Part shown: positions 7,151 through 33,010 of the stretch, piece by piece
Layout of the letters: each line of letters opens with the position of its first letter
Position numbering within the stretch: the stretch's first letter is position 1
From: a virus
Virus record (IMG/VR): IMGVR_UViG_3300045988_050655
DNA length: 64,000 nt
Reading direction: 5' to 3' (one strand)
The notes under the pieces: model-generated
The model's input: only the letters and a program-made list of their open reading frames with translations
Databases searched by the model: none
Told to the model about the DNA's origin: nothing
Program-made: the position numbers and the translations under genes

Positions 7151-7228
7151 TGGGGCGCAAGGTGGGACTCGAACCCACGACCTCGAAGGGGATGAACCTT
7201 CATACTCTACCAACTGAGTTACTTGCGC
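7151..7228 (-). tRNA. tRNA with CAT anticodon (Met or Ile2), encoded CCA
   Basis: Manual cloverleaf: acceptor GCGCAAG/CTTGCGC, D arm ACTC-AGTTGGTA-GAGT, anticodon arm (T)GAAGG-TTCATCC-CCTTC(G), T arm GTGGG-TTCGAGT-CCCAC, then C-CCA. Two extra nt give a 6-bp anticodon stem, and position 37 is C. Confidence 0.75.
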
Positions 7229-12033: not shown

Positions 12034-12066
12034 GGAGAGGGTACGGAGCGGGTACGGAGAGGGTCT
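12034..12066. repeat. three tandem 11-nt repeats (GGAGAGGGTAC / GGAGCGGGTAC / GGAGAGGGTCT) abutting the integrase stop codon
   Basis: Read directly. The period of 11 nt is one helical turn. Confidence 0.75.
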
Positions 12067-13228: not shown

Positions 13229-13253
13229 AAGCCTTTCTTTTATAAATCTGCTG

Positions 13254-13261
13254 CAAAGATA
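13254..13261 (-). promoter_or_regulatory. Bacteroides-type -7 box (TATCTTTG on minus strand) for int
   Basis: Exact match, 25 nt upstream of ATG 13228. Confidence 0.5.
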
Positions 13262-13291
13262 AGCATTTTTTTTGTTACTCGCAAGTTTTGG

Positions 13292-13640
13292 GTAACAAAA
13301 TAGTAACAAAACTAACACGTATCAAATGTATAGGTAATGTATATCAAGCTTTCGGATAATTAATTTTTCAAAAAGGTAAAGCGTTGATAACTAAAAGTTT
13401 AGATATACATTTGATATACATTAGGTAACAGATAGCTTAAAGTGGGCTATCTACTATCTTTATTATTCCAATATGATTTATTTCACTAGTTAAACATCTG
13501 ATTTATAGATAGTTATGAATTTCTTTGTTTTTAGTGAGTAACAAAATAGCAACAATGAAGTGTTAATCTTTGCAAAGTAACTAGCTTGCCCACAACAAAG
13601 ATACGAATTAAATCTTATTCACAATTAGTTTTCAAAAAGG
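13292..13640. repeat. cluster of dispersed direct and inverted repeats (iteron-like or arm-site-like)
   Basis: Three repeat sets: an 18-nt direct repeat GTAACAAAATAG(T/C)AACAA at 13292-13309 and 13538-13555; a 12-nt direct repeat TTTTCAAAAAGG at 13365-13376 and 13629-13640; and four TATACAT(T) copies, two inverted at 13326-13344 and two direct at 13404-13422. Confidence 0.7.
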
Positions 13641-14761: not shown

Positions 14762-15466
14762 ATGATTAAACCAACTTATGAAAAGTTCAAGAGATATTGT
14801 ATATCGAAGAACTATGGAACAGATGAATACATCAAGAGTCTTTATGATTATCTTGATGAGAGGGAGTGGAAGAAGGCAAATGGAGAGGAACCAGTAAACT
14901 GGATGATTCTCACTGATGCTAACTTTGGTGTGTTCAACGCTAAAGGTAAATTCTCTAGAGCAATCAGGGAAAAATTGGCTGAAAAGTCGGAAGATTTCGA
15001 CCCTGTTGAGCCATTCCCTGATAATGGCATGAACTATGTGGCTTATACGGATGGAAGTTGTGACAATCATTCTAAGTATAAGGCTGGAGGTTCGGCTTAT
15101 ATCGTGTTGAAGGATGGCGATATTGTCAAGATGAAGAATCATGGCAGACTACAGACTACGAATAATAGAATGGAGTTGCTTGCTATCATCAGTGCAGCTA
15201 AGTCTTGCCCATCTGGTGCTTATCTTGATATTTATACAGATAGCCAGTACTGCATACTTGTGTTGGGGAAGAGTACTCCACCAAAGAAGAATCCTGACCT
15301 CTATGAGTTGTACAAGAAATGCTCTGCTCATTTGGCAGGAGTTCAGTTTCATTGGGTAAAAGGTCACAATGGTGACAAGTACAATGAAATGGTTGATGAT
15401 TTGGCTTATGGTGCGTACTGCGAGATATGTGAGCAATATAATATAGAGAAATTGAAAAGACATTAA
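14762..15466 (+). CDS. ribonuclease HI with ~95-aa N-terminal extension
   Basis: 'YTDGSC', 'TTNNRMELLAII', 'IYTDSQYC', 'WVKGHNGDKYNEMVDDLA' give the complete RNase H DEDD pattern. Confidence 0.85.
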   Translation: MIKPTYEKFKRYCISKNYGTDEYIKSLYDYLDEREWKKANGEEPVNWMILTDANFGVFNAKGKFSRAIREKLAEKSEDFDPVEPFPDNGMNYVAYTDGSCDNHSKYKAGGSAYIVLKDGDIVKMKNHGRLQTTNNRMELLAIISAAKSCPSGAYLDIYTDSQYCILVLGKSTPPKKNPDLYELYKKCSAHLAGVQFHWVKGHNGDKYNEMVDDLAYGAYCEICEQYNIEKLKRH

Positions 15467-15477
15467 AATTTTGGCTT

Positions 15478-15858
15478 ATGGAACTTGATATGTTGATTAG
15501 AGATGCCCTGAGTGATGCCCAGTGGTTAATTGCGAAGGGCGGCACGGATAGGGCAGAAGTCCTGAATCGTGTGATGGGTAAGATTGATGATGTCCTGAAA
15601 GAACTGGATGGGGTTGAACTCATTGACCTCAACAAGGTTTGGCATCAGGCGAAAGATGTTATGCCACCAAGAATTTATGGTGGCAATCATGCAGACTTGC
15701 TGTGTGTGCATCAGTTCAAGCCTACCTCTCATCCTATTCTTACTCATGAAGAGTACTGCCCTGAGGAGGAAGCGTATCTTAAAGCGAGTCCGAATGACTG
15801 GTGGTGCAGAACTGGGGATTTGTTGAAGAAGGAACATCGTGAACTTTATTGGAGATAG
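15478..15858 (+). CDS. hypothetical protein (126 aa)
   Basis: ATG ORF in the operon. No motif recognised. Confidence 0.5.
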   Translation: MELDMLIRDALSDAQWLIAKGGTDRAEVLNRVMGKIDDVLKELDGVELIDLNKVWHQAKDVMPPRIYGGNHADLLCVHQFKPTSHPILTHEEYCPEEEAYLKASPNDWWCRTGDLLKKEHRELYWR

Positions 15859-15860
15859 AT

Positions 15861-16436
15861 ATGGAGATAGAAGTCTGGAAACCTATCGAAGGTTATGAGG
15901 ATAGATACGAAATATCCAATTTGGGTAGAGTAAAATCCTTGGAACGTAGAATTAGAATTGCAAACGGTCGTTATCGAGTAAAGAAACAGAATATACTGAA
16001 GGAAAATCGTGCCCTTCCATATACTATGGTTCATTTAAGCGAGAAACCTTTTTATGTTCACAGATTGGTCGCTAATGCTTTTTGTGATAATCCGTGTGGG
16101 TATAATGAGGTAAACCACAAAAATGAAAACATCAGAGATAACAGAGCTGTGAATCTAGAATGGTGTGACCATAAATATAATTGTAATTATGGCACAAGAA
16201 ATATTCGACAAGCGGCTAAATTAATAAATGGTAAATGGGCAAAATCGGTTGTTCAGTTAACATTGTCTGGCGAATATGTTGCAACCTTTCCGTCAGTAGC
16301 AGAGGTTCATAGACAGTTAGGGTTCAGTAAAGCACCAATAACATGTTGTTGTAGGCATTATAAATATTACACATCTTCTCATGGTTATATGTGGATGTTT
16401 GAATCAGAGTATAAAAACAGAAAATATGGTAAGTAG
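15861..16436 (+). CDS. HNH homing endonuclease (NUMOD4 plus HNH_3-type)
   Basis: 'WKPIEGYEDRYEISNLGRVKS' (NUMOD4) and 'EVNHKNENIRDNRAVNLEW' (HNH). ATG 15861 lies 2 nt after the upstream stop. Confidence 0.8.
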   Translation: MEIEVWKPIEGYEDRYEISNLGRVKSLERRIRIANGRYRVKKQNILKENRALPYTMVHLSEKPFYVHRLVANAFCDNPCGYNEVNHKNENIRDNRAVNLEWCDHKYNCNYGTRNIRQAAKLINGKWAKSVVQLTLSGEYVATFPSVAEVHRQLGFSKAPITCCCRHYKYYTSSHGYMWMFESEYKNRKYGK

Positions 16437-17285: not shown

Positions 17286-17957
17286 ATGTTAGGAGCATTA
17301 ATTGGGGCAGGTCTTGGACTTGCAAGTAGTATCGCTGGTGGTGTAGCTAACCGCAAGGCGAGACGTAAGCAGGAGCAGATGATTGCCCAGCAACAGAAAG
17401 AAAATCAGGCATGGTATGACCGAACATACAATGCCGACCCGACCAAGCGTGCTGATACGGTTCGCTTGCTCACACAGATGCAGGAGCAGATTAAGAACAG
17501 AAACAAGGCTGCCAAGGGCAGACAGGCGGTGATGGGTGGTATGGAAGACTCCACTACTGCGGTGAAGGAGGCGAACAACAAGGTTCTTGCTGATACTACC
17601 TCACAGATTGTGGCTGCGAATGAGTCTCGCAAGGATAATATCGAGCAGCAGTATAGAGAGCGCAAGAATCAGTTACAGAACCAGCAGATGGGCATTGAAG
17701 CTGAGAAGGCTGCTGATACCGCTAATGCGGTGGCTGGCGTGGCTGGTACTGCTGCCAATATCGCTGCAACTATTGATAGTGGTGCTGGTGGAGCAAAGAA
17801 GGCTCCGAATATGAATGTGACTCAGGAGCAGTTGAATGGTATTGCCAAGAATCCGAATGATGTTCTTGGCTTGAAGGCGAAGACTACTGGGCTACCATCG
17901 CAAGGTGAACTGAATAGTCTTGGCTTGAAATTGCAAGAACAGAAAGTAAAAGCATAG
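17286..17957 (+). CDS. putative virion internal protein (Gly-rich hydrophobic N-terminus, Q/A-rich coiled coil)
   Basis: Composition and position as the first gene behind P2. No family recognised. Confidence 0.6.
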   Translation: MLGALIGAGLGLASSIAGGVANRKARRKQEQMIAQQQKENQAWYDRTYNADPTKRADTVRLLTQMQEQIKNRNKAAKGRQAVMGGMEDSTTAVKEANNKVLADTTSQIVAANESRKDNIEQQYRERKNQLQNQQMGIEAEKAADTANAVAGVAGTAANIAATIDSGAGGAKKAPNMNVTQEQLNGIAKNPNDVLGLKAKTTGLPSQGELNSLGLKLQEQKVKA

Positions 17958-19084: not shown

Positions 19085-22000
19085 ATGCCAGATAATGTAG
19101 ATAAGTTATTTGAAATAATGCAGGCGAAAGGTGCTGCTAGTGATAGAGGTAAGTTCCGAAAAGTATTCTTGACTCCTGGCAATAAGGGGTATAAGATAAG
19201 AAAGGATATTTATGATGGACTCAGGGCAGACGGCATTATAGATAGTCCAACTTACGAGGATTTTAGACGAAAGCTAAGACTTGGTGGTACTCCAACAGTC
19301 AATAAGTATCGTCAGCAAATGTTTAACTCTGTTGACCCAAACAAGAGCAGAGCGTCAGAACTTACTAATAGAGCGGTAGGTCAGGCTGTAAGGGCAACCA
19401 ACAATGTCCGTAAACCAGTAACCGCAAAGGTTGTGAATCGGAAAGGTAAGCCAATTGGAGAGGAGTTTGCCATTACTCCTGCCAAGACCGTAGAAGACCT
19501 TGATAGGGAGTATGCTCAGGAGACAACAAAGAACTGGGAGAATGAACTGCATGACCAGATGGCTGATGCCGACAAGGATGCAGCAAAGATTAGCGATATG
19601 TTCAAGTCCTTCATCGGTTCTACTGATGAAGTAGGTAGTGTATGGGGTAACATGACTAGAGGTGGCGGTATCGCTGGTACTCCTCATAGTGTTACTACCA
19701 ACAATGGCATCATGGAGAATACAGAAGCTCGACAAATTCTTGCTGCTGGTGATTACAATCGTAAGAGAAGAGAACTCTTGCAGTTGGAGCAGGATTCAAG
19801 AAATGGTGCAATCTTTGACAATCATTCTTTTTTTAGAGGAATGTATGATGCAGCCAAAGATACTGGATTCCTGACTGGCGGTGCATCTGACCTTATCAAT
19901 GCTGGTTCCTTGCTTGCAACCAAGCAGGATTTGGATAATGGTGTCCATACTGAAGCTGGTGATATGCTGATGCAGCAAGCGGTAAAGAATAGTAATGCAC
20001 AGAGTCAGTATGGTGACAATCAGGGATGGATGTACACTGGTGGTGTTATCACTACCAATATGGCTCCTTTTATGGTGCAGATTGGTAGTGCTGGATTTTC
20101 CAAGGGTATGAGTAACGCTATTGGTAAGGTAGTGCAGAGTGCAGCTTCCAAGGTCGCATTGGGTATGATGAATAAGGCAATTGGATTGACAAGTACTCAT
20201 GTCGCAAACATCATAGGTAAAATGACTGGTCTTACTACCAAAGCATTCGGCAAGGCTATCCAGTATGGAATTGTAGGTGCTGCCCAAGCTAATACGGTTG
20301 GTCTTGGAAATGTGGCTAACGATGTGATTAACCGCTATACTGGTCAGGTCTATCAGGATGAGCAGGGCAACTACAAGTTTGGCACATTTGATAGTGATGG
20401 CAATCTTGTGCATGAAGGCGGTGAAGACTTCCTTACTGCTCTCGTAAAGGGTGAGGCGGCTCAGACTATTGAGTTTGCTACTGAGTTGGCTGGCGGTGGA
20501 ATTGATGCTGCTGGTACTGCCCTGAAGAACTTCGTTACCAAAGGTGGCAAGAAAATTATCAACAAGTACAACATGGAGAATGTTTCCAAGGTGATTGACT
20601 TCTTGCTTAATAATAAGGTGGCAAAGAATGCAAGATACTTGAAGGCTGGTGCTGACAGAACTCTTGGCAAGGTTGAAGTGAATAGTATTGTCGGTGAGTC
20701 TCTGGAGGAAGAGTTGGGTATCATCGCCAACACGGTCTTTACTGGTGATAATAAAATCTCAGACTTGTGGGATGAAAAGCAGCAGTCTCAGATATGGGGC
20801 GGCATGCTCTTGTCTATCGGATTGATGAAGGGTGCTGTTGCTCCTTTCCATGCTTATAATGCCAAGCAGTATTATTCCTATAAGCATAAGCTAGACAAGG
20901 CTGATGTGAACTTGTCTCAGTTGCTCGGTAAGGAGAAGTGGGAAGAACTCCGTAATCAGATTGATACTACAACAAACGATGATATGCCTGAAATGGTAAA
21001 CAGAATCAATCGTGATGTTGCTCTTGGTAAGAACAGACAGCCAGTGCGTGAGTATATTCAGAACTTGCTCATCATGCGTGGATATGACATTGGCAACATG
21101 CTTGCTGCAAAGAAGGCAGTTGAAGACAAGGGTGAAGGTGTCTCTGTGAAGAATATGGAGAAGAATCAGGCATACCAGCAGGGTCGTGATGCTTATGGCT
21201 ACGATACTCATGAGATTCAGTTAGACCAAGAAGACAAACAAAAGTCTCTTGCCCAACTTCTCGGTATCTCAGAGCAGCAGTTGGCATCCATGAGTGATGA
21301 GGAACTTGATGCACTCTCTGGTCGTGATGATAATATTGATAGGGCTATCTATGACTACCAGTTATCTACTGCTCGCTATGAAGGTGTGATTGATAATGCA
21401 AGAGACCAGATAGACTTGGAGGTTCAGAGGGCAGCACAAGCGGTTGATATGTACACAGACAAGTCTCGCAATACAATCCGAAATGCTACCATCAAGGCTA
21501 CTGGCGGCTTGGAAGACTATGGTGTTTATATTATTAATGGTAATATCGCTACCCATGAAGATGGTTCCATTGATATTAGTAATAGTGATGATATGATTCT
21601 GTATTATGACCCAACTACCAATACGGTTGAGCATGCTGATGCCATGATGTTTGCTGAACTGGGTAGTGAGGAGAATGCTGATGAAGTGAGAAGTCAGGCT
21701 ATGGCTGATGCCAAGGAGAAGGCTATCAAAGAGACTACTGGTATCATTGATGGTGTTGTAGAGGTAGGTACTCAGTTCAAGACCGTTGATGCAGATGGAA
21801 CAGAACATACTTATGAAGTACTCGCTGATAATGGTGATGGTACTGCCATGATTACTATTGATGGCAACATTCCAACTGAACTTGTCAAGGGTGAGAATGT
21901 AAATATTCCAGTCTCGTTTGAAGAGTTGCAGAAGATGAAGGATGAGTCTGACCAGCAGAGATTGCAAGCGGCAAAGGCTCAGCGAGAACAGATGGAGAAG

Positions 22001-25000
22001 GAGCGTGCTGAGCAGCAAAATCAGGAGACAGAAGAGACTCAACCTTCATTTGACTTCAAAAAGATACTCAATGATAATGGTAACGTGGTGCTTGCTGATG
22101 TACTCGACGAGGATGGCAATACAAGATACCCAAACTCAAAGTTATTTCTCATCCGTGATTCTGGTGCTAAAGCTAAGGTGGTAGAGTTGAAGAGTGATGG
22201 CACTCTTAAATCTCATGCCGTTGATAAGAAAGACGTGAGAACTGCTACTACTATGTCGCTCGATGAATACAAACAAGCTATGGCTGAATCCTCAATGATA
22301 GAGGATAATAGTGGAGAGAATAGAGGTGAGATAGAGGCTGAAACTTCAATAATAGAGGATGCTGAACCAATAGGAACTGGTGCGTTTGGCAACATCTATA
22401 ATCAGTTTAAGGGCAAAGTTAAGGAGGCTTTCAACTTCCTGATGAGTCATAAGAGTGGAGATTTACTTGGTGTCTTCCATCGTGATGATGTTGGAGACAT
22501 TGACCTTGTATGGGGTAACGAAAAGATGGGTTTGGCTCATATCCTTGGAAAGCATGTAGGTGAAGGAAAAGACTTTGAGACTCCAGATGATGCTATTGAA
22601 ATGATTGAGAATGTTATTAATAGCGGTCGTATCTTCCAAGATAATCAGAATCGCTATACATTAATGCTTGATGGTGTAGGTGTAGGTATCAGAAAGAGTT
22701 TCGATGGCGAGAAAAAGAATTGGATTGTGACTGCTGTTGACTTTAATAGAAGTCAAGAAGAAAAAGGAATCGTCACCAATCCCACGTCAACCTCTCATGG
22801 TGTTACTGAGTCAGAGTCTGCTGCTGCGCTCAACGATTCCGATGGCAAAGATATTAATAATTCTGCAAACGACAATGAAAATAATGAAAGTTTAACATTT
22901 GAGGATGGTACTCCTATCCCAGTTGATGAGAATGGAGAGACTGACCTTAGCCAGACTGATGCTGCTCATGCTGCTGAGTGGTATGATAATAACCTCGGTG
23001 AGGATGCTGACGATTGGTTGGATGGAGAAATCAAGAAGGCTAAGAAGGTATTGGAGCAAGCACAGAATAAGAAGGTGACTGGCACTAAGCCTTCTGAGTT
23101 GGTTGCAAGCAAGAAAGAGAAGGAAGCTGCCATTGCTGATGCCCAAGCACATTATGACTCTGCAATCTCTATTCGTGATTCGTTGAAGGAAAGAAGAATT
23201 GCCAAGGAAGAGAATACTGCTGAGGGTAGGAAGGAACTCATTGAGAAGGAAAGAAGAAAGTTCGCTCGCTTGAAGAGTGCGGTGAAGGATGATGCTGAGG
23301 CGGTTGCTCAACTCTATAAGGAGACGGTTGGTTCGTTGCTGCATCGTCTTTACGATGGTACTGGCATTGACGTGACAGATACGATTCCGCTTACTGCTGA
23401 GGAGTATGTGGCTAGTAACCTCGGTGCTCACTCTCTCAACTATGAGGGAACAGAGACAAGCAAGGGTGTTAAGCAGGAGACTGGTTTGAACAGAGAAGAC
23501 TTTGCTAAGACTCAGTTGCTGGCTGCTGATGGCAAGGGAACTACTATTGATAACCTTGTGCATAGTCTGTGGGAGAATCGTCCATCTAACCTTGATTCGC
23601 TCGGCACACAAGAGATTCGTAACGCTTTGCTCAGCGTAATCACTAGCGGTTTCAAGGCATCGGAAGCAAGAAACTATATAGAGAATCTTCGTATTGCTCA
23701 GGCTGAGAACTTCCTTGAAGAGCAGAAGAAGGCTGCTGACAATGCCGCATTCGCTGAGGAGAATAAGGCTGAATCAGAACAACAGACTGAAACGGCTACT
23801 GAATCTGAGGAGAAGACTGGGGAAGACAACTCTGATGAGATTAATGATGAGGATAATGAGAAGATAAATGAGCAGACAAATGAGAATATAAATGCTCCTG
23901 AGGTTCCTGAGGATGCAACGGAAGAGAATCCACTTGGCTTACAACTTAGCGAAGATAAGGTTCCGTTTGAAATTGAAGGAGGAAAGAGCGGTGAGACATA
24001 TAACATAAATGATAATGAAGACAGACAGAGACTTATCAATGACAATAAGGTGGATGATAAGGACATCTTGGATATTGATATGCCTAAACATGTACACAAG
24101 GCTATTAAGGAGTTGTGTAAGAAGATGGGATTGAAGGTTCAGTTCCTTTATATGGGCGCAAGGTCAAATGGTTGGATAGAGAATGGAACCATGTATCTTG
24201 CTCTGGACACAGAGATGGCTACCCAGTTTGTGTTTGGTCACGAAATGACTCATGCAATCAAGCAGAAGAATCCTGAGGCATACAAGGAACTCGTTAAGGT
24301 TGCCATGGCTGTAACGACAAAGAAGAAGTTTGAGGAAGACTTGGCAAAGGTTTACCAAAACTATCATGGTATCTCTGGATATAACAATGTTGATGATTAC
24401 GTTGAGGAGGTTGTTGCTGACAACTTAGGAAAGTTCATTAATAACTTTGACTTGGCACAGAAGTTTTCTCTTCGTCTCAATCATCCTGTATTGGCAACGA
24501 TTCTTCATGCTATACAGAAGATAAAGAGTCTGTTATATGGAGACTTCTACAAGTCTGTAGATGCTTTGGAGCGTATCGTTGAAAAGGCATACGTTGATAC
24601 TGCCAAGGGTGAGGTGACGAACTCTGAGACTGGCGAAGATGTTTCCTTCTCTCTCCGTCAAAAGCCTGAACCTAAGAAGAAGGGCATCGGCTACAAGGTG
24701 TTCGTGTTGAAGGATGGCAAACTCTATCCACCAATGGTAGCGAACCCTGATGGTGCTGCTACTCCAGTAGGTGTATGGCTTGATGCTGATGCGGCTCCTA
24801 TTGCTGGAGAAAGCAAGACTGGCAGACCTCAGGTTAAGCAGGGCGGCAAGGGAACACAAGGCGGTAGCGGTAAGCTAGCCTATAGACCAGGCTGGCATCT
24901 TGGTGTTGTGCCTTATGCTATCCAGTTCAACCGCAAGGATGCTGAGGGAAACAAGACTCTCTTCCCTAAGAACTTTGTCTTCGCTGAGGTGGAGTATGCT

Positions 25001-28000
25001 GCTGATGTTGATTATCAGGAGGAAGCTCGCCAAGAGGGTATCAATCCATCGGGTAAGTATCAGCATTCTCTCGCTGGCTTGAAACATTTGCCTACTGATG
25101 GCTATTATATGTATCGTACCAACCCGAACCCTGAGACTGACCCTTGGGTGATTACTGGTGCGATGAAGGTGAACCGCATCTTGACCAGAGCAGAGCAAGC
25201 AGAACTTGTGAAGAAGACTGGTCGTGAACCTCAGCAGATTCAGGAGGGCGATATTGTTACTGATGATGTTGTGAACAGCATCAATCAGGAGATAGCTGAT
25301 GCCCCTAAGTTCTCGTTGAAAGACCCATTCAAGATGTCTGACAATGAGAAGAAGGAGCGTGGTGATAGACTTATTAAGGCTCCAGCTATTAATGTGGCTA
25401 GTGGTGTCATTCAGAAGACTGCTGACTTGTCTGCAAGAAAGGCTGCTGAAAAGTGGTGGAATGAGAATGTAGCAAAACCTCTCGTCTTCAATACAGAGGT
25501 TGGTGATGTGGAGATTAATGATAAATCTATCAAGGATTCACTTGCTCATAGATACAGACAACCTAAGTTGGATGCCATTACATCATTACCTGATGGATTT
25601 GGAAATGCGGTGTACCTTGGTACAATGAAGGACTTCACTAGGGATGGTGATGTAAACAATCACTATTTCGCTTATCCTATCAATTATGATGGGCAGAGAA
25701 ACTATGTGTTCTGTCGTGCTATGCAGGATGCTAACAAGAATAGATTATATGTGCATGAGGTGTTTGTTGCTGATAAAATAAACGAGGGCAATACCCTTCA
25801 AACCACAGCGTCACAGCCTCATGGAGGTATTGCCCTCTACAAAGAAATTCTTGCGAATGTTCTTTCTGCTGCAAAGATAGACAATTCTTCTGAAACTACC
25901 AAGGAAAATGGCGAAAAGTTTTCATTGAAGGACGAAAAAACTCTTGCAGGAGTGCATAACATTACTGAGGAGAAGCTGAGAAAGGCTTTGAAACTGGGTG
26001 GCTTTGCCAATCCTTCTTTGGCTGTAATTGATACTAACAAGACTGGTCACGACAACTTTGGAGAGATTTCCTTCATCGCTCCTTCTGCCCTTGTAGATAA
26101 GCGTACTGGCAAGACTGCTGGTACTTGGATAACTGATGCCTATACTCAGCGTTATCCTTCCGTAGAACGAGAAATGAGCGAGAAAGGCAGTCAGAAGTTT
26201 AGAGACTGGGTTGATAGCCTTGAATACCCAAGTGAAGCTAAGGCTGAGATTAAGAGACAGGCAGAGGATGCTCTGAGCAACAATAATGCTCCTGCTTGGG
26301 AATTGATGTACTTGAAGGAAAAGGGTATTGACATTAAGGAGTATGATTCAAGAATTGATTATCGCTGGAAAGAAATTATCAAAGACCATCCAACTGTTGA
26401 GGACATTCTGAATAGTATGAATACTGACCCTGAACTGAATGAAAAGGTTACAGGTCTCGCTAAGCATATCATCGTTGACCCTATACGGGGAAAGATTTCG
26501 TTGGAGGTGAGAAGAAAGATATATGAAGAGACTGGTGTTAAGATGAGTTCTCTCAATCCACAAGTAAGAAAACAGACTAAGGAAATCTTTGAGCGTGACT
26601 ATGCGCCAAGTCTTCTTAACAAGAATGGTACACCAAAGAAATCCGATGTAAAGAAGGTTGTTGAACAGATGGTGAAGGAGCACAACGACACAAAGAAGTA
26701 TGACTTCTATCTGTCTAAGGTGAAGGCTAGTAATTACGTCAACAAGAATGGTCTTTATGATGATTACATCAGATGGCAGGAGAACAAACTGGATGAGTTC
26801 GGAACAAAGAACCGTATCTTCCGTGGCTATACTAAGGATGGTTCCAGAAAGTATGTGCCTGAGACTCTTGAAAATGTTTCAAAGGCTATGAGGGAAGAAG
26901 CAGATGGGCAGACCAATGGAAGCGAATATACCTCGTTTGGTAGCTTTATCGCAAAGTTGGCTAGTCGTGTTGATTCTACAGACGAAATGCGTGCCAACAA
27001 GGATAAGTTGTCTTCTAATAAGGATAAGGAAGAATTTTACGAGAAATGGTCGGACGTATATTATGACCTTGCCAAGTTCTTTTATAATGATGTGTTCTAT
27101 GGCGAGCAGAGACTTCACGATATTGTATTGCAGTCTGACCCTAAGAAGTATGCCAAGAAAGAATATGGCATTACCCTTACTCCTACCTTCATGAAGAAGC
27201 TGGATGCCTTGAAGAATGCAGTACAGACAGAGTTGAAGAGTGCGTACTTTGAGACTAAGTACAACAGACCTCTCCGTCTAAACGAGTTTGCTGCTGCCGT
27301 GGTTCCTGATAACTTGGGCGAAGATGTACGCAAGGGAATAGAGAATGCTGGCTTACCAATGTATGACTACGACCCGAATAAGGAAGGTGACCGCAGCCGT
27401 GCCTTCAATGAAGCTATCAATAGTAGAGACAATATCAAATTCTCTCTGAAATCTATGATGGCGAAACCTGAGGGATGGAAACAAGCCAACAAGAAGGCTA
27501 TACATATTGCAGAAGCTATTGAGCGTGACCCTAAGTTCTCCTTGAAGAACCTTGATGGAACTCTCATTAAGGCTGGAACATATTTTAGCGGTGGCGGTCT
27601 TGTTGAGGAAGGTTTGAAGGGTATCATCGACCCAGTGGTGGCAGTTGAGTATGACGAGAAGATAAGCGGTGTTTATCGCAACAACTTCGGGCAGCACATC
27701 GTTACTGCTGATGTTCGTGATGTTGACCCAAGAGAGTTGGTTAAGCTGATTGATGGCGAGGTAGAGTACTTCCATGCCAGCCCAGTCTGCAAGAACTACT
27801 CTCAGGCAAAGAGTAACCATGCTGAGGTGGAACTTGACAAGGAGACTGCTGCTAGTACTGCCGAGTTCATCAATGCTATCAATCCAAAGGTGGTGACAAT
27901 CGAGAATGTGAAGGGATATAAGGATTCGGATGCCATGAAGACTATTACCGATGCTCTGGATGCCAACGGCTACACTTGGGATGCAGATGTGTATAACGCT

Positions 28001-31000
28001 GCTGACTATGGCGGCTACACCAACCGAGAGAGATTGATTGTCCGTGCGGTTCGTGATGGCAAACTCCCTGAAAAGCCAAAGAAGATGGCACGCAAGAGCG
28101 GATGGTATGAAGCTGTGGCTGATATTATCCCGACCCTGACCGAGAAGAAGAATGGTGTGGCTCCTTGGATGGATATTCGATTGAAGGCTGATGGCATTGA
28201 CTGGCGAAACATTGACAAGCCATTATATGTGATGGGTAGTGCCTATGCTGACGGAAAGGTTCCTCATGCCTTCGCTGATGAACTGCTGCCTACACTCCGA
28301 ACCAAGAGCGGTGATGTGATTGTGATGCCTGATGGCAAGGTATATCGTGCCATGGGCAGAGTGCTCGCTAGAGTATCAGGAGTGAGCGATGATTACAAGA
28401 TGCCATTCTCTGAGAATCTGAGCCATACCATCATCGGCAACGGAATCCCTACTCAGTTGACCGAGCATGTTATTGCTCCTCTGCTTACTGGCTCCGACCC
28501 TAAGTTTAGCATCCGTACCTATCACGGCACTGGTGCTAGCTTTGACAAGTTCGATTTATCTCATGCCTTGGAAGGCGAGGGAAGTGAGAGCTTCGGTCAT
28601 GGTGTGTATGTTACCAACTCTAGCAAGATTGGACGTGAGTATGCCCAGAGAGCAAAGAATAGAAAGATGGAAGACCTCTATAAAAATATGCGCTACCCTG
28701 ATGGGGTGAAGGGCGATATTTTCAAGAGAAGAGTCTTTGGTGAAATGGTGAACGATGTGGCTACTGGCGGTAGTGTGGCAAGTGCCAAGGAGTTTGCCAA
28801 GAAACGTGTCGGTGCTGATGCCAATGATATTCAGCGTACCCTTGAAAACTTGAAGGATAGAGAGAAGGGAACTGAGTATGAACAGAACTTGAAGGATAGA
28901 CTTGCAGAGTATAAAGAAGGCTTGAAGTGGATTGATTCTCTTGATGAAGATTATCTTACCCAAGGGAACGCTAACAGATACGATGTGGATATTCCTGATG
29001 ATAACGGTGAAAATTACCTTGGATGGAATGAGTCTCAAAACTTCCCATTGGAAAAATGGTACAGACTATGGGAAATAACTCATGAAGGGTTTAATGAAAA
29101 CGAGTATTTCAAAGATGGTGGAGCGAGATATGATATAGATAGGATTGAGCGTATCACCCAAATGAAACTTGAATCGCCAGAGAATGGTATGCAGAGACTT
29201 CCTACATTAAAAGGTGAAGCATTGTATCATGCTTTGGAAGACTTCTTCAACCGTGAAAGACCTTCGTATGGTGCAGAATTAGCATCAAGGGCTTTGAGTG
29301 AAATAGGTTTTGTCGGTATCAAGTACCCTGCTGGAATGATTCATGGCGGTGCTGAGGAAGGAGATTACAACTATGTGATATTCGATGAGAACAATGCCAA
29401 TATCGTGGGTAATACCCGATTCTCCTTGCGCTATGACCAGTTTGAACACGACTTGAACCAGTGGAAGAAGGATAATAATCTGCCTAAGGATGCCCAGCGA
29501 CCAACCATCCCACAACGCAACGCTGGCGAGAGTGCTGCTGCATTCTTGAAGAGAGTGGATGAGTACCGCAAGCAGATGGCTCTTTGGAAGACTGCTCCAA
29601 CATACGAGCAGCATCTTCTGAGTGATGATACTGCCCTTGGAGAGTTCAACCGAGAGTTGCAGCGTGGTTCCGTGCTGAAACGTATCGCCTTCCAAGATAG
29701 TATGCTGGCTATCCGCAAGGCTCAGGAAGCTATCATGAAGGAAGTTGGTGTTGACCGCCTGAATATGGCTGAGGATGCCTATACTGCCGAGAACCGGAGT
29801 CACGGCAAGGGAAAGAATGAGTTTGAGGAGTACAATAATGAGTTCTTGCAGCCATTGAGAAAGGCTTATCACCAGATGAAGAAGATACTTGGTGATAGCT
29901 ACGATAATGTCCGTATCTACATGATGGCTAAGCATGGCTTGGAGCGTGATGCCCAGATGGCATTCAAGAAGTCACTGGATGCTGACTTTGAGGATGTGGC
30001 TCAGAGAAGTGCGGCATACAGGGCTTACAAGGGCGATATGAACCGTATTACCAATGATAGCGATTTGGAGTTTGGAAGAGTGGATTTCACTACTTGGAGG
30101 CAGAGAGATAATGCTCTCAGAACGAAATATTCTCCTTCCTATATGGACTATCGTTATGATGAGAATGGTATCGCCTACGATTATTCAGGCTTGTCGGCTC
30201 TCTTCGGTGGCTCTGACTTTGAGGAAGCTGCCCACAAACTGGTAAGGGATATTGAGAGTAGTCATGTAGCTGAGGTGCAAGACCTCTGGAATGCTACGAA
30301 TGCGGCTACCAAGAAGATTCTCCGTGATGGCTATAAGGCTGGTATGATGAGCAAAGATACTTATCAGTATGTGCGAGATATGTATAGCCATTATATTCCT
30401 CTCCGTGGCTGGGATGGCACTACTGCCGACCAAGTATGGGACTATATTGGTGGTGGCAAGGGTGCGTTCAATCAGACCTTGAAAACGGCACATGGACGAA
30501 CCTCTATTGCTGATGACCCTATCGCCTACATCGAGAATATGGCAGAAAGTGGAATCCTGCTGAACAACAAGAACTGGGTGAAGCAACACCTGATGCTCTT
30601 GGCTCAGAATCATCCAACTTCCCTGCTGACCCTGAGCAAGGCTTGGTACGTGAAGAGTACGGATGCCAACGGCAACGAGGAGTGGATTCCTGCTACACTT
30701 CAGATTACTTCTCATATGAATAGCAATCAGGTGAAGGCTGCTATTGATGCTTTCGAGCAGAAGATGGAGAATATGGCGCAGACTGGCGATGCTACCCAGC
30801 AGAGAGAAGGCTTGAATATTGCCTATCCTCAGACTCATAGCGAGGAGAGAGAACATGAGGTAAGAGTGATGAAGGATGGCGAGGAGTATATTATCTATGT
30901 GAATGGTGACCCTCAGTTGGCTCAGGCGATGAACAATACCAGAGCACACCGAGTGAGAGAAATTCAGAGCGGCAAACTGGATAGGGCTGCTGCTTGGTTG

Positions 31001-33010
31001 GGCAGAAAGATGGCTGCTGCCTATACCAGTCTTTCACCTCTCTTCATCCCTTCCAACTACTTCCGAGACCTGACCATGACGCTGGCATCTACCGCTATTC
31101 GTGAGGATGGAAAATACAACTATCTGCTCAGAAAGAATCTGGCTACCTCTTGGAATCTCGGTTTCATGTTGAGAGACTATCAGAATGGCAAGTTGAGAGA
31201 GAAGGTAAGCAACGGAAACGCTACTCCTAAGGAACAGATGTTCTATGACTTCATGATGAATGGTGGCGAGACTGGCTTTGTATCTTCACTTGATGTGGAA
31301 GACTTGAAGAAGAAATTCAAGAATGACTTGAAGGATTTGGATAGATGGAAGGCGAACCCAGTTAAGGTTGGGCACACCATCATGGATGGCATTGAGTTCC
31401 TGAACAGAGCAATCGAGGATAGTAACCGATTTGCGGTTTACATGACCTCTATTCAGTATGGACGTTCCATTGATGAGGCTGTGAATGATGCCAAGGACGT
31501 TACCCTGAACTTCAACCGCAAGGGTACTGGCGAATACGGCTGGCAGATGGTTAGAAATCTCTATCTCTTCATCAACCCAGCGGTACAGAGTTTGCAGACT
31601 CTTGGTGCGCTTGCCAAGCATCATCCTTTCAAGTTCACGGCTGTTACTGCATCATGGTTGGTGAGTGGTGTGCTGGTTCCTATCGTTAACGCTGCCCTGA
31701 TGAGTCTGTTGGGCGGTGATGATGATAAGGATAAGTACTGGCAGTTCACCAAGTGGGATAGACGAAACAACCTTATCATGTGGGTTCCTACTACTCATGA
31801 GTTCGTGAAGATTCCGCTTGCTCAGGAGTTCCGTGCTTTCTATGGAATAGGCGATATGATTGCATCCAAGATGATGGGTGGCGAGTTGGCTGAGGAGAGT
31901 TGGAGTCAGTATGCAGAAGACTTGCTCGGTCAGGTGGTGGATATGCTTCCGCTCGACCCGACTGGATATGACGGCAATATTGCGGTCAGCCTGATGCCGA
32001 ATGCTATTCGCCCAGTCTTTGAGTTGGCTTTCAATGTTGACTTCACTGGCAAGCCATTATTCAAGGAGACAGAGTATAACAAGTATGACCCGAACTTTAC
32101 CAAGGCATACGTGGGTACTCCTGATTGGTTGGTTCGTGCATCCAAGATGGTTAACTCAATCGGAAACGACTATCCTGATGTGCAGCAGAACAGCATTGAT
32201 GCTTTCGGTGACCCAAGATACAATCTGAATAACCCTGCTGTGGTTGACCATGTATTGTCTTCTTATCTCGGTGGTGCTTACACCATGGGCAGTCAGGTGC
32301 TCGGTGTTCTTACCAAGTCACTCAACGACCCGAAGGAAATCAAGGTGGCTGATATTCCATTATTCAGCAAGTTCGTCAGCAATCCTGATGATAGACCGGT
32401 TACTAAGAAACAAGGTGATGAGTTCTGGAATATGAAGGAGAACCACGACCGTGCAGCCAATACCCTGAGCAAGTTGAAGAAACAAGCTAAGGTGGATGGC
32501 GATTACTCTATGCTGGAGCGGTTCTACGGCTCAGAGGAGTATAAGCAGTATAAGCAGGATGATGTGAAGGTGAAGAAGTATGAGGAAGACAAGAAGAAGG
32601 AACGTGCTGAGGAGAGTGGGGAGGAGTATAGACCTAACAAGTTGAATGCCGAGGATATATATAAGGCTCATGCTACTCCGAAGGATGATTTCGAGGACTT
32701 GAAACTGAAACAACTCTACACTAAACTGAACGGATTCAAGACTTCCTATGACCTCTTGGTTGATACGGCTCCTAGTCAGAGCGATGCCTACTACAACACC
32801 AACAAGTCTGCCATTGATGCCATTGACGAGATTTCCCTTGATAAGCAGGAGATTTCCGAGTTGAAGAAAGGTTTCTTGGATGATGGCAAGGATGCCTACA
32901 ACGCTGAGGACATGAAACAGATTCGTGAACTGAGAAAGAAGATTCTTGCTGTACTGGAGAAGGCTAACAAGGTAGTTGTGGCTAACCAGAAGGCGAAGAC
33001 TGAGAAGTAA
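19085..33010 (+). CDS. giant polyvalent protein (4,641 aa) with zincin peptidase, C5 DNA methyltransferase and ART-like modules
   Basis: Uninterrupted 13.9-kb ATG ORF. For motif coordinates see the three domain features and the findings. Confidence 0.9.
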   Translation: MPDNVDKLFEIMQAKGAASDRGKFRKVFLTPGNKGYKIRKDIYDGLRADGIIDSPTYEDFRRKLRLGGTPTVNKYRQQMFNSVDPNKSRASELTNRAVGQAVRATNNVRKPVTAKVVNRKGKPIGEEFAITPAKTVEDLDREYAQETTKNWENELHDQMADADKDAAKISDMFKSFIGSTDEVGSVWGNMTRGGGIAGTPHSVTTNNGIMENTEARQILAAGDYNRKRRELLQLEQDSRNGAIFDNHSFFRGMYDAAKDTGFLTGGASDLINAGSLLATKQDLDNGVHTEAGDMLMQQAVKNSNAQSQYGDNQGWMYTGGVITTNMAPFMVQIGSAGFSKGMSNAIGKVVQSAASKVALGMMNKAIGLTSTHVANIIGKMTGLTTKAFGKAIQYGIVGAAQANTVGLGNVANDVINRYTGQVYQDEQGNYKFGTFDSDGNLVHEGGEDFLTALVKGEAAQTIEFATELAGGGIDAAGTALKNFVTKGGKKIINKYNMENVSKVIDFLLNNKVAKNARYLKAGADRTLGKVEVNSIVGESLEEELGIIANTVFTGDNKISDLWDEKQQSQIWGGMLLSIGLMKGAVAPFHAYNAKQYYSYKHKLDKADVNLSQLLGKEKWEELRNQIDTTTNDDMPEMVNRINRDVALGKNRQPVREYIQNLLIMRGYDIGNMLAAKKAVEDKGEGVSVKNMEKNQAYQQGRDAYGYDTHEIQLDQEDKQKSLAQLLGISEQQLASMSDEELDALSGRDDNIDRAIYDYQLSTARYEGVIDNARDQIDLEVQRAAQAVDMYTDKSRNTIRNATIKATGGLEDYGVYIINGNIATHEDGSIDISNSDDMILYYDPTTNTVEHADAMMFAELGSEENADEVRSQAMADAKEKAIKETTGIIDGVVEVGTQFKTVDADGTEHTYEVLADNGDGTAMITIDGNIPTELVKGENVNIPVSFEELQKMKDESDQQRLQAAKAQREQMEKERAEQQNQETEETQPSFDFKKILNDNGNVVLADVLDEDGNTRYPNSKLFLIRDSGAKAKVVELKSDGTLKSHAVDKKDVRTATTMSLDEYKQAMAESSMIEDNSGENRGEIEAETSIIEDAEPIGTGAFGNIYNQFKGKVKEAFNFLMSHKSGDLLGVFHRDDVGDIDLVWGNEKMGLAHILGKHVGEGKDFETPDDAIEMIENVINSGRIFQDNQNRYTLMLDGVGVGIRKSFDGEKKNWIVTAVDFNRSQEEKGIVTNPTSTSHGVTESESAAALNDSDGKDINNSANDNENNESLTFEDGTPIPVDENGETDLSQTDAAHAAEWYDNNLGEDADDWLDGEIKKAKKVLEQAQNKKVTGTKPSELVASKKEKEAAIADAQAHYDSAISIRDSLKERRIAKEENTAEGRKELIEKERRKFARLKSAVKDDAEAVAQLYKETVGSLLHRLYDGTGIDVTDTIPLTAEEYVASNLGAHSLNYEGTETSKGVKQETGLNREDFAKTQLLAADGKGTTIDNLVHSLWENRPSNLDSLGTQEIRNALLSVITSGFKASEARNYIENLRIAQAENFLEEQKKAADNAAFAEENKAESEQQTETATESEEKTGEDNSDEINDEDNEKINEQTNENINAPEVPEDATEENPLGLQLSEDKVPFEIEGGKSGETYNINDNEDRQRLINDNKVDDKDILDIDMPKHVHKAIKELCKKMGLKVQFLYMGARSNGWIENGTMYLALDTEMATQFVFGHEMTHAIKQKNPEAYKELVKVAMAVTTKKKFEEDLAKVYQNYHGISGYNNVDDYVEEVVADNLGKFINNFDLAQKFSLRLNHPVLATILHAIQKIKSLLYGDFYKSVDALERIVEKAYVDTAKGEVTNSETGEDVSFSLRQKPEPKKKGIGYKVFVLKDGKLYPPMVANPDGAATPVGVWLDADAAPIAGESKTGRPQVKQGGKGTQGGSGKLAYRPGWHLGVVPYAIQFNRKDAEGNKTLFPKNFVFAEVEYAADVDYQEEARQEGINPSGKYQHSLAGLKHLPTDGYYMYRTNPNPETDPWVITGAMKVNRILTRAEQAELVKKTGREPQQIQEGDIVTDDVVNSINQEIADAPKFSLKDPFKMSDNEKKERGDRLIKAPAINVASGVIQKTADLSARKAAEKWWNENVAKPLVFNTEVGDVEINDKSIKDSLAHRYRQPKLDAITSLPDGFGNAVYLGTMKDFTRDGDVNNHYFAYPINYDGQRNYVFCRAMQDANKNRLYVHEVFVADKINEGNTLQTTASQPHGGIALYKEILANVLSAAKIDNSSETTKENGEKFSLKDEKTLAGVHNITEEKLRKALKLGGFANPSLAVIDTNKTGHDNFGEISFIAPSALVDKRTGKTAGTWITDAYTQRYPSVEREMSEKGSQKFRDWVDSLEYPSEAKAEIKRQAEDALSNNNAPAWELMYLKEKGIDIKEYDSRIDYRWKEIIKDHPTVEDILNSMNTDPELNEKVTGLAKHIIVDPIRGKISLEVRRKIYEETGVKMSSLNPQVRKQTKEIFERDYAPSLLNKNGTPKKSDVKKVVEQMVKEHNDTKKYDFYLSKVKASNYVNKNGLYDDYIRWQENKLDEFGTKNRIFRGYTKDGSRKYVPETLENVSKAMREEADGQTNGSEYTSFGSFIAKLASRVDSTDEMRANKDKLSSNKDKEEFYEKWSDVYYDLAKFFYNDVFYGEQRLHDIVLQSDPKKYAKKEYGITLTPTFMKKLDALKNAVQTELKSAYFETKYNRPLRLNEFAAAVVPDNLGEDVRKGIENAGLPMYDYDPNKEGDRSRAFNEAINSRDNIKFSLKSMMAKPEGWKQANKKAIHIAEAIERDPKFSLKNLDGTLIKAGTYFSGGGLVEEGLKGIIDPVVAVEYDEKISGVYRNNFGQHIVTADVRDVDPRELVKLIDGEVEYFHASPVCKNYSQAKSNHAEVELDKETAASTAEFINAINPKVVTIENVKGYKDSDAMKTITDALDANGYTWDADVYNAADYGGYTNRERLIVRAVRDGKLPEKPKKMARKSGWYEAVADIIPTLTEKKNGVAPWMDIRLKADGIDWRNIDKPLYVMGSAYADGKVPHAFADELLPTLRTKSGDVIVMPDGKVYRAMGRVLARVSGVSDDYKMPFSENLSHTIIGNGIPTQLTEHVIAPLLTGSDPKFSIRTYHGTGASFDKFDLSHALEGEGSESFGHGVYVTNSSKIGREYAQRAKNRKMEDLYKNMRYPDGVKGDIFKRRVFGEMVNDVATGGSVASAKEFAKKRVGADANDIQRTLENLKDREKGTEYEQNLKDRLAEYKEGLKWIDSLDEDYLTQGNANRYDVDIPDDNGENYLGWNESQNFPLEKWYRLWEITHEGFNENEYFKDGGARYDIDRIERITQMKLESPENGMQRLPTLKGEALYHALEDFFNRERPSYGAELASRALSEIGFVGIKYPAGMIHGGAEEGDYNYVIFDENNANIVGNTRFSLRYDQFEHDLNQWKKDNNLPKDAQRPTIPQRNAGESAAAFLKRVDEYRKQMALWKTAPTYEQHLLSDDTALGEFNRELQRGSVLKRIAFQDSMLAIRKAQEAIMKEVGVDRLNMAEDAYTAENRSHGKGKNEFEEYNNEFLQPLRKAYHQMKKILGDSYDNVRIYMMAKHGLERDAQMAFKKSLDADFEDVAQRSAAYRAYKGDMNRITNDSDLEFGRVDFTTWRQRDNALRTKYSPSYMDYRYDENGIAYDYSGLSALFGGSDFEEAAHKLVRDIESSHVAEVQDLWNATNAATKKILRDGYKAGMMSKDTYQYVRDMYSHYIPLRGWDGTTADQVWDYIGGGKGAFNQTLKTAHGRTSIADDPIAYIENMAESGILLNNKNWVKQHLMLLAQNHPTSLLTLSKAWYVKSTDANGNEEWIPATLQITSHMNSNQVKAAIDAFEQKMENMAQTGDATQQREGLNIAYPQTHSEEREHEVRVMKDGEEYIIYVNGDPQLAQAMNNTRAHRVREIQSGKLDRAAAWLGRKMAAAYTSLSPLFIPSNYFRDLTMTLASTAIREDGKYNYLLRKNLATSWNLGFMLRDYQNGKLREKVSNGNATPKEQMFYDFMMNGGETGFVSSLDVEDLKKKFKNDLKDLDRWKANPVKVGHTIMDGIEFLNRAIEDSNRFAVYMTSIQYGRSIDEAVNDAKDVTLNFNRKGTGEYGWQMVRNLYLFINPAVQSLQTLGALAKHHPFKFTAVTASWLVSGVLVPIVNAALMSLLGGDDDKDKYWQFTKWDRRNNLIMWVPTTHEFVKIPLAQEFRAFYGIGDMIASKMMGGELAEESWSQYAEDLLGQVVDMLPLDPTGYDGNIAVSLMPNAIRPVFELAFNVDFTGKPLFKETEYNKYDPNFTKAYVGTPDWLVRASKMVNSIGNDYPDVQQNSIDAFGDPRYNLNNPAVVDHVLSSYLGGAYTMGSQVLGVLTKSLNDPKEIKVADIPLFSKFVSNPDDRPVTKKQGDEFWNMKENHDRAANTLSKLKKQAKVDGDYSMLERFYGSEEYKQYKQDDVKVKKYEEDKKKERAEESGEEYRPNKLNAEDIYKAHATPKDDFEDLKLKQLYTKLNGFKTSYDLLVDTAPSQSDAYYNTNKSAIDAIDEISLDKQEISELKKGFLDDGKDAYNAEDMKQIRELRKKILAVLEKANKVVVANQKAKTEK
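24062..24455 (+). other. zincin-like metallopeptidase module of the giant protein
   Basis: HExxH 'GHEMTHA' (HEMTH at 24239-24253) in a 'YLALDTEMATQFVFGHEMTHAIKQ' context. Confidence 0.7.
27572..28490 (+). other. C5 DNA methyltransferase module of the giant protein
   Basis: Motif I FSGGG 27584-27598, motif IV SPVC 27779-27790, motif VI ENV 27902-27910, motif VIII TNRER 28019-28033, motif X GNGIP 28436-28450. Confidence 0.85.
28502..29430 (+). other. ADP-ribosyltransferase-like module (ART-PolyVal/DUF3990-like) of the giant protein
   Basis: 'TYHGTGASFDKF' (YHGT 28520-28531), 'FGHGVYVT', a long helical insert, and terminal 'NYVIFD' (29369-29386). Assigned by pattern memory only. Confidence 0.5.

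Follow-up and report, generated by a model that had tools for sequence, protein, structure and literature searches.

Few phage proteins are as large or as variable as the polyvalent proteins, whose proteolytic processing has been an open hypothesis since 2017. Autoprocessing by an embedded metallopeptidase (MPTase) was proposed for this class, the P1 proteins DdrB and DarA being processed and the P1 anti-restriction proteins being processed before packaging, and no cleavage site or junction motif is named (Iyer et al. 2017, PMC5512222). Here we describe a candidate for such a site in a 64,000-nucleotide stretch of viral DNA (IMG/VR record IMGVR_UViG_3300045988_050655), referred to as the window. 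The element is a pentapeptide, [KRS]FS[LI][KR], that recurs at the module boundaries of a giant protein of 4,641 residues (positions 19085–33010, + strand), which occupies the place of the internal virion or ejection proteins in a podovirus-like prophage. We found no prior description of the motif and no published cut site in the literature on the motif, on polyvalent-protein proteomics or on Segatella copri prophages, and the study of MuF toxins by Jamet et al. (2017) mentions neither the motif nor cleavage. Both the protein class and the processing hypothesis predate this work. New are the junction peptide, the finding that it lies downstream of one family of zincins, and its role as an exchange breakpoint.

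Prohead proteases cut proteins of the capsid interior and ejected proteins at a short consensus, which is [LI]xE for T4 gp21 and [SAG]xE in phiKZ and SPN3US. In these phages a dedicated serine protease, which also matures the capsid, cuts separate gene products in trans, whereas no prohead protease is seen in the window, the candidate protease lies in cis and the sites part the numerous modules of a single chain. A repeated short consensus at the junctions of a giant precursor that contains the protease is also typical of the polyproteins of eukaryotic RNA viruses, such as those cut by picornavirus 3C (between Q and G) or by potyvirus NIa. The window giant differs from these in being a presumed virion protein of a double-stranded DNA phage that carries interchangeable anti-host effectors instead of a fixed replication set, and in that its cleavage is predicted. 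In polymorphic toxins, a conserved peptide (VENN in CdiA, PxxxxDPxGL in Rhs, DWVKN in MafB) lies exactly at the recombination boundary of swapped cassettes, as the present motif does, and the Rhs motif is also an autoproteolysis site. In these proteins a single motif precedes the one C-terminal toxin, whose immunity gene lies next to it, whereas up to 16 motifs bound internal modules in series in the giants described here, followed by a conserved C-terminal region of 1,190 residues; no immunity genes were noted, and no search was aimed at them.

Very large podovirus proteins with a zincin-type motif that are packaged and ejected, as proposed or shown, include phi24B gp47 and N4 vRNAP (gp50). 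The former has the LPD38 domain that is also present in the window giant and a MuF-C metallopeptidase, was found in virions by mass spectrometry and is proposed to be ejected, and no cleavage or junction motif is described for it (bioRxiv 10.64898/2026.04.10.717836). The latter has an HExxH domain in its C-terminal part, according to the N4 structure paper, and is reported to be packaged unprocessed (Iyer et al. 2017, PMC5512222).

A scan of the whole giant open reading frame for [KRS]FS[LI][KR] returned eight copies, compared with 0.024 expected from composition; 20,000 shuffles of the protein gave a mean of 0.025 and a maximum of 2. Each FS[LI] tripeptide of the protein lies inside one of the copies. 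The original prediction, made from the DNA letters, had listed seven copies, whose nucleotide and residue coordinates are exact, and had put the chance expectation well below one, as found here; its total of seven has to be raised by one match, KFSLR at residue 1793. Its claim that the other proteins of the window lack the motif holds for all other long open frames, the sole further match being RFSIR at position 6764 on the minus strand, in an open stretch of 45 codons.

The seven listed copies, all on the + strand, fall between modules, in agreement with the Pfam and PHROGs coordinates. The first, SFSLR at residue 1854 (24644–24658), separates a zincin-like module (residues ~1645–1840) from the first cargo module, a beta-rich conserved block of about 215 residues (24659–25306; phrog_30118 at residues 1870–2047) modelled by AlphaFold2 (AF2) with a predicted local distance difference test (pLDDT) of 80–98. 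KFSLK at residue 2075 (25307–25321) lies between this block and the second module, LPD3 (25322–25915; residues 2117–2222, 45.0 bits), and KFSLK at residue 2278 (25916–25930) directly precedes the third, in which PBECR5, a predicted RNase (residues 2283–2448, 70.9 bits), is followed by some 330 residues without a domain assignment (25931–27436). Two further KFSLK copies, at residues 2785 (27437–27451) and 2817 (27533–27547), precede the fourth module, a C5 cytosine DNA methyltransferase (27548–28501; DNA_methylase at residues 2834–3130, 97.5 bits, E=1.4e-27), the second of them 12 residues before the FSGGG of motif I. KFSIR at residue 3140 (28502–28516) ends one residue before the YHGT of the fifth module, an ADP-ribosyltransferase (ART) of the ART-PolyVal type (28517–29416), the Pfam match to which (residues 3144–3241, 26.5 bits) is below the cut-off of 31.2 bits; the other Pfam scores given for these modules are above theirs. 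Homologous ART modules are flanked by the motif in the relatives P0001, P0003, P0010 and P0012. The last copy, RFSLR at residue 3445 (29417–29431), stands 12 residues past the NYVIF strand and before a motif-free conserved C-terminal region of about 1,190 residues (29432–33007) with LPD38 (residues 4216–4426, 82.5 bits, above cut-off) and phrog_14770, which overlaps a PHROGs match to a giant-protein family (residues 3536–4513) and is the presumed ejection or structural part. Several unrelated conflict-type domains, including LPD and PBECR signatures, are thus present in one phage polypeptide. LPD3, LPD38, PBECR1, PBECR5, ART-PolyVal, a methyltransferase and an HExxH metallopeptidase are all components of the proteins described by Iyer et al. 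(2017, PMC5512222), and on its domain content the window giant is a polyvalent protein in their sense.

The eighth match, KFSLR at residue 1793 (24461–24475, + strand), is not at a junction and lies inside a helical bundle of the zincin module in the AF2 model. Because the position is unconserved in homologues, where it reads RFVLR, RSLALK or HTLAMK, the match is probably non-functional or due to chance; a role as pseudo-substrate is possible. The motifs at residues 2785 and 2817 are 32 residues apart and enclose a segment of 27 residues, SMMAKPEGWKQANKKAIHIAEAIERDP, that forms the leader of the methyltransferase module in 23 relatives. The two close motifs (residues 2785–2821) may be the remnant of a module deletion, and cutting at both would free a small peptide. 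Trypsin cleaves after positions 1 and 5 of the motif, so that tryptic peptides are unable to span every copy.

Conservation in homologous giants, the check put forward with the original prediction, was scanned, and hundreds of these proteins have the motif at domain junctions. The close set comprises 80 IMG/VR loci (L001–L080) and the window, that is, 81 giants of Segatella/Prevotella prophages. The proteins of the 80 loci are mostly 4,500–5,500 residues long, and the conserved block, 97–100% identical, is often their sole common part. The 81 giants contain 689 motif copies with a median spacing of 239 residues (range 15–796), none of which is located upstream of the HEMTH zincin (136,280 residues upstream versus 265,067 downstream). 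The variable modules upstream of the zincin (residues ~1090–1270, including PBECR1, and 1550–1617) are free of the motif.

The flanks of the 689 copies fall into 27 classes of upstream tail and 28 classes of downstream module, joined in 65 combinations; the upstream tail VNSINQEIADAP, for instance, is followed by seven different modules after its KFSLK. The residue at position 1 of the motif varies with the class of the upstream tail (1.11 of 1.38 bits), that at position 5 with the class of the downstream module (0.87 of 0.92 bits), and the exchange points therefore lie inside the motif. When the window protein was compared with its relatives by BLASTP, 69 alignments ended at residue 2079, the last residue of a motif, and the ends of high-scoring segment pairs clustered at other motifs too, with starts at residues 2258–2278, starts and ends at 2776–2790, ends at 3144 and starts at 3433–3443. 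The motif is the exact breakpoint at which modules are exchanged between phages, and this explains how very close S. copri prophages differ almost solely in their sets of cargo. A further giant, of 5,827 residues in Prevotella sp. UBA746 (L181), has 16 motif copies and a run of about seven tandem modules of ~190 residues, each bounded by KYSLK, that resembles a paralogous cassette array.

Across the eight window copies the central codons are TTT or TTC, then TCT, TCG, TCA, TCC or AGC, then CTT, CTC, TTG, CTG or ATC. Most synonymous positions differ between copies, and the peptide, not the DNA, is therefore the conserved object. The 689 copies of the close set comprise 86 distinct 15-mers and 36 distinct nine-nucleotide cores and use all six Ser codons. 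One oddity of codon usage was seen: the Arg of position 5 is encoded by CGT or CGC in 295 of 296 copies and never by AGA, which makes up 38% of the Arg codons elsewhere in the reading frames, and the motif Ser is TCN in 92% of copies versus a background of 59%. This bias may stem from a few ancestral copies or from a constraint at the nucleotide level.

Full-length relatives were taken from IMG/VR, GTDB genomes and a representative library, and a word-indexed protein database yielded fragments below 800 residues alone, with seven zincin matches. In 120 fragmentary homologues, [FY]S[LIVM][KR] was observed 87 times against 7.0 expected. The peptide [FY]S[LI]R precedes the YKVF core of the conserved block at a fixed spacing of 12 residues across lineages, and in seven other viral lineages [LIV]-[KR]-[FY]-S-[LIV] ranked first among the recurrent words in an unbiased count of reduced-alphabet k-mers. 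The fifth position is clade-specific, being S in L088, E in L106 (RFSKE) and A, S or G in L096 and L112. The consensus across these sequences is a [RKQ]-[FY]-S-[LIVM] core, to which a K or R is added at the fifth position in the clade of the window.

The relation of the motif to the zincin was analyzed in the distant set with the core pattern [KRQ][FYW]S[LIVM]. A search with the zincin alone in the library, clustered at 50% identity, gave 223 matches, and among those listed, 104 proteins have at least 1,500 residues. Downstream of the zincin, these 104 representatives contain 273 copies against 39.1 expected (7-fold), versus 13 against 18.7 upstream of it; the 24 with the closest zincins contain 147 copies downstream against 12.1 expected. 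Copy number rises with the similarity of the zincin (Spearman 0.52), and the first site is often found 12–57 residues past the zincin module. Freeing the motif positions one by one showed that every residue is independently enriched; the enrichment of the Ser is 8.5–17x over background, 8.5-fold in the set of 104 representatives, and Thr in its place is not enriched. Among giants selected by the conserved block, at least three copies are present in 17 of 20 proteins with this zincin family versus five of 36 without it, and in these five exceptions other zincins are positioned 125–190 residues upstream of the first site. As a control, 21 giants with an HExxxH zincin ('HEAVAHYGLR') alone gave 23 copies against 15.7 expected. 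The association of the motif is therefore with a single zincin family and architecture, not with zincins generally, and is drawn from few independent clades.

The DarB-like giants (L100–L124, L148, gp55 of BKO1-TP3, which is L160 267–16928, and gp3 of BS-TP4, which is L161 759–16934) consist of 5,000–5,500 residues with a DEAH helicase and an HExxxH zincin. They have the conserved block and the C-terminal region in common with the motif-bearing giants and no repeated motif, and the pentapeptide before their block is [KML]YRIR, with Arg in place of Ser. These proteins, including those of the Bacteroides phages BKO1-TP3 and BS-TP4, were rejected as a zincin-less control because the HExxxH zincin lies downstream of the block. 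L094 and L095 were likewise rejected as cases of a motif without zincin, HEIIGH being present in both. That the motif is part of the cargo folds was rejected as well, since LPD3 and PBECR1 occur without it, including in the N-terminal half of the window giant. The distance from the motif to the ART core is 1–2 residues in the window and ~35 residues in L088.

Other junction peptides were seen in more remote relatives. In P0066, P0075, P0084, P0085, P0100, P0109, P0110, P0114 and P0116, the peptide (K/F)NPYHDxxG[RK]F[TS] replaces the FS motif, and these proteins have an XkdF-type serine protease domain (PF14550) or no zincin. No description of the NPYHD peptide was found in the literature; if the pattern is general, the type of junction motif would switch with the type of protease. 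In the lineage of P0021, P0023 and P0033 (loci L188–L190), EGLGS[IR][RL] or GLGMSV is found at junctions, and the gene is located at a prophage end beside an integrase, followed by a DDE transposase.

The zincin-like module of the window giant (residues 1645–1840; 24017–24604, + strand) contains HEMTH at residues 1719–1723 (24239–24253) and an EEVVAD helix downstream. Its AF2 model (pLDDT 73) consists of a helix, three strands (model residues 60–64, 72–75 and 78–82), the helix with HEMTH (87–104) and then helices that include the one with EEVVAD (145–161). An HExxH helix after an N-terminal helix and a three-stranded sheet, with the Glu that supplies the third ligand in the following helix, is the core topology given for the MPTase of polyvalent proteins by Iyer et al. 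(2017, PMC5512222). From the HExxH, the downstream Glu helix and this topology, the module is predicted to be a zincin-like metallopeptidase. The HExxH is intact in 104 of 104 long representatives of the family. Of the 81 close relatives, 42 have two HExxH motifs and two have three, making 44 with more than one. Extra HExxH motifs belong to further zincin modules of the HEIQH type (e.g. SILNHEIQHAIQS), located among the cargo cassettes and flanked by the motif, in L130, L135, L149, L151, L163 and others.

A second AF2 model covers residues 1838–2302. KFSLK-2075 is in coil there, at a point where the pLDDT falls from 84 to below 50, and KFSLK-2278 lies within a stretch with a pLDDT below 50. 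SFSLR-1854 is part of a tail with a pLDDT below 50 in the zincin model. Two of the three modelled sites, 2075 and 2278, are in segments of coil or low pLDDT, and that at residue 1854 is at the boundary from disordered to ordered chain. Beyond about −3 to +5, the flanks of the motif show little conservation and many acidic or small residues; the flank profile of the relaxed pattern contains chance matches, and the flanking columns alone were used. A Foldseek search with the model of the conserved block gave no significant match in the PDB, and BFVD returned uncharacterised viral proteins alone. The block is the most conserved module (602 database matches), with invariant His, Ser and Asp-type residues, and it always adjoins a zincin, which precedes it in the motif-bearing giants and lies ~280 residues after it in the DarB-like ones. 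An enzymatic role or a partnership with the zincin is possible for it.

As a prophage, the window encodes a Bacteroidota-type integrase, an SU10-type capsid protein, a portal and a terminase. A copy of the conserved block that is 98% identical is present in a complete S. copri chromosome, that of strain HDE04. Directly upstream of the giant gene is a gene for a T7 gp14-like internal virion protein (17286–17957, + strand; Pfam T7_gp14, E=9.8e-6, 26.0 bits against a cut-off of 27). A tblastn search with the C-terminal region matched 337 phage records, among them those of Bacteroides, Ralstonia GP4-like and Stx phages; the identity over the 1,190 residues is 31–33% with the giants of cultured Bacteroides phages and ~25% with the Stx-phage records. 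A megablast search of the giant reading frame against GenBank phages gave no match, and the sole tblastn match of the two-module region was in Roseobacter phage CRP-212 (30%). Since the gp14-like gene adjoins the giant gene and the LPD38 C-terminus is common to virion giants of the phi24B type, the giant protein of this S. copri prophage is probably packaged and injected with the DNA.

What the sequences show is a compact junction signal, conserved as a peptide, at the bounds of each cargo cassette that follows a particular zincin. The original prediction had left it as either a conserved linker or a processing site. A conserved junction element is strongly supported by the conservation of the peptide, its recurrence in homologues and its role as breakpoint, and the evidence is consistent with a processing site. 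In favour of the latter are the lack of any of the 689 copies before the zincin, the enrichment restricted to the downstream side in the 104 representatives, the association with this zincin family in preference to HExxxH zincins, and the low-confidence linkers that hold two of the three modelled copies. As in viral polyproteins, the same short consensus stands at the module junctions (seven copies in the window, 689 in the 81 relatives), and a protease is encoded with which the sites co-occur, by a correlation over few independent clades. A head protease, named in the original prediction as a possible cutter, is unlikely because none was found in the window; no other protease besides the zincin is recognisable there either. 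The motif is the best candidate so far for the cut site of polyvalent proteins. That it is both a family-wide cassette boundary signal of polyvalent ejection proteins and a proteolytic processing site is, in our estimate, an evenly balanced proposition. Cleavage of the motif by whatever protease seems somewhat more probable than its absence, and cleavage by the resident HEMTH zincin falls just short of an even prospect. Only tentatively do we suggest that these ejection proteins are self-processing effector polyproteins, in which the zincin cuts a universal junction peptide around the time of injection and frees customisable anti-defence enzymes.

In this mechanism, an internal or ejection protein of 4,641 residues would enter the capsid as a precursor and be cleaved at all seven junctions, most probably by the HEMTH zincin that it contains, either in the capsid or after ejection. 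The motif would be bound in extended form, and a hydrophobic S1' pocket might take up its aromatic residue. Cleavage is predicted to yield an N-terminal piece of ~1,850 residues with the zincin, free effectors of ~220 (the unknown block), 200 (LPD3), 510 (PBECR5 RNase), 320 (C5 DNA methyltransferase) and 305 residues (ADP-ribosyltransferase), a peptide of 32 residues and the C-terminal LPD38 piece of ~1,190 residues. Because one universal site flanks every cassette, any effector that is swapped in would stay releasable.

Several observations weigh against cleavage by the zincin. Curated support for the zincin assignment is weak: Pfam gave a sub-threshold match to Peptidase_M13 over HEMTH to EEVVAD (17.1 bits against a cut-off of 24.5), and Foldseek found no PDB entry at E<=0.001 for the model, the best peptidase being 3c37 (E=0.56). 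The AF2 zincin model leaves the site at residue 1854 outside the active site, and tblastn against GenBank phages yielded no cultured phage with this zincin. In the model of residues 1838–2302, SFSLR-1854 borders the conserved block on its N-terminal side, and its S–L forms a short beta-bridge (pLDDT ~59). An [FY]x[IL]R strand is found at the same spacing before the block in all lineages, including the motif-poor DarB-like giants (YRIR), and the motif at this junction may be partly structural. Elsewhere the motif abuts the downstream folds, one residue before YHGT, directly before the start of the PBECR5 profile and likewise at the methyltransferase. Zincins of different sequence, of the HExxH and HExxxH types, precede arrays of the same core motif, and the associations between motif and zincin are phylogenetically non-independent. 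In P0021, P0023 and P0033 the EGLGS[IR] variant is present at the extreme N-terminus (MEGLGSIRKK...), where there is nothing to separate. Finally, three other delivered proteins with zincin domains, N4 vRNAP, ArdC and TraC1, are reported to stay intact (Iyer et al. 2017, PMC5512222).

An alternative to cleavage is that the motif is a recognition or docking peptide, one per cargo module, that stays uncut and is bound by the capsid interior, the portal, the ejectosome or a host chaperone of the Hsp70 type. Its alternation of basic, hydrophobic, any, hydrophobic and basic residues resembles DnaK-binding cores, and a chaperone would grip the emerging unfolded chain and help to pull in and refold a protein of 4,641 residues. 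Ejection proteins have to traverse a narrow channel, LPD38 giants such as phi24B gp47 are virion proteins, and the compact core in flanks of disordered type is like that of short linear motifs. The position of the motif, fixed to the N-terminal edge of modules and not to the centre of linkers, also fits docking, as do the motif-like segments kept at the N-terminus where the conserved block is the first module of a protein. Chaperone motifs are degenerate, however, whereas the motif Ser is essentially invariant and Thr is excluded, and docking explains neither why the variable modules before the zincin lack the motif nor why the motif tracks one zincin family. We consider it unlikely.

The cut might also be made by another protease: a host protease after ejection, an unrecognised phage protease, or a second zincin of the HEIQH type among the cargo. 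The occurrence of HExxH and HExxxH zincins upstream of arrays with the same core, the 44 of 81 relatives with more than one HExxH and the AF2 model without docking of the site are in line with this, as is the conserved block beside the zincin, an uncharacterised, strongly conserved fold with invariant residues of His, Ser and Asp type. Such a protease was not recognised in the window, however; the polarity of the motif and its family-specific association favour the resident zincin, and a host protease would leave the lack of the motif in DarB-like giants of related hosts unaccounted for. An origin of the cut outside the resident zincin thus seems rather doubtful.

Alternatively, the motif could serve as a structural connector alone, an N-terminal capping beta-strand that insulates neighbouring folds, so that recombinants joined there fold correctly with neither cleavage nor a partner. 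The alternating hydrophobic pattern of K-F-S-L-K suits a strand, and the beta-bridge in SFSLR, the [FY]x[IL]R before the conserved block in all lineages and the recombination breakpoints inside the motif agree with this. Yet folds as unrelated as a Rossmann methyltransferase, an ART, a BECR RNase and LPD3 need no common strand with an invariant Ser, and the same domains occur elsewhere without the motif. The spacing to the ART core varies from 1 to ~35 residues, and two of the three modelled copies are in coil or low-confidence segments, which makes a purely structural role improbable.

It is very improbable that the junction Ser is a site of phosphorylation or another modification that regulates the modules. 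The Ser is invariant, the pattern [KR]-x-S-hydrophobic-[KR] fits the consensus of basophilic kinases and a CotH kinase domain is encoded in the window (39273–43106), but kinase sites usually accept Thr, which is excluded here, the aromatic residue of position 2 equals the Ser in conservation, the CotH domain belongs to a presumed external fibre protein, and the position at junctions and the polarity relative to the zincin are left unexplained. A DNA-level signal, in which cassettes would be exchanged at a recombination hotspot of 15 nucleotides and the peptide would be incidental, would account for the exactness of the breakpoint, but was rejected as hardly credible on codon diversity, given the many distinct 15-mers and cores, the use of every Ser codon, the synonymous differences among the eight window copies and a peptide conserved across clades with unrelated DNA.

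Outside the motif-bearing part, the N-terminal 1,640 residues of the giant (19085–24000) are almost without recognisable domains save PBECR1 (residues 1131–1222, Pfam 61.4 bits, above cut-off), and long acidic low-complexity stretches occur around residues 1560–1620. PBECR1 is a variable insert without flanking motifs in the window and is preceded by KFSLK in P0010. The integrase gene (12065–13318, − strand) is ~5 kb from a tRNA-Met gene (7151–7228, − strand), and the stretch from the integrase to the virion genes holds genes for an RNase H (14762–15466) and an HNH endonuclease (15849–16436), both on the + strand. The CotH atypical-kinase domain (Pfam E=2.6e-10) is part of a tail-fibre-like protein of 1,277 residues (39273–43106, − strand) and is unusual for a fibre protein.

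A defined, conserved junction peptide makes the processing hypothesis for polyvalent proteins directly testable. It also provides a simple rule by which thousands of giant open reading frames from metagenomes can be split into effector cassettes, including the 215-residue block. If cleavage is true, the motif and the zincin would form a compact, portable release system for engineered proteins delivered by phages of gut Bacteroidota. The giants would then represent a plug-and-play form of delivery by double-stranded DNA phages, analogous to the polyproteins of RNA viruses, in which effectors are shuffled freely and their release is kept.

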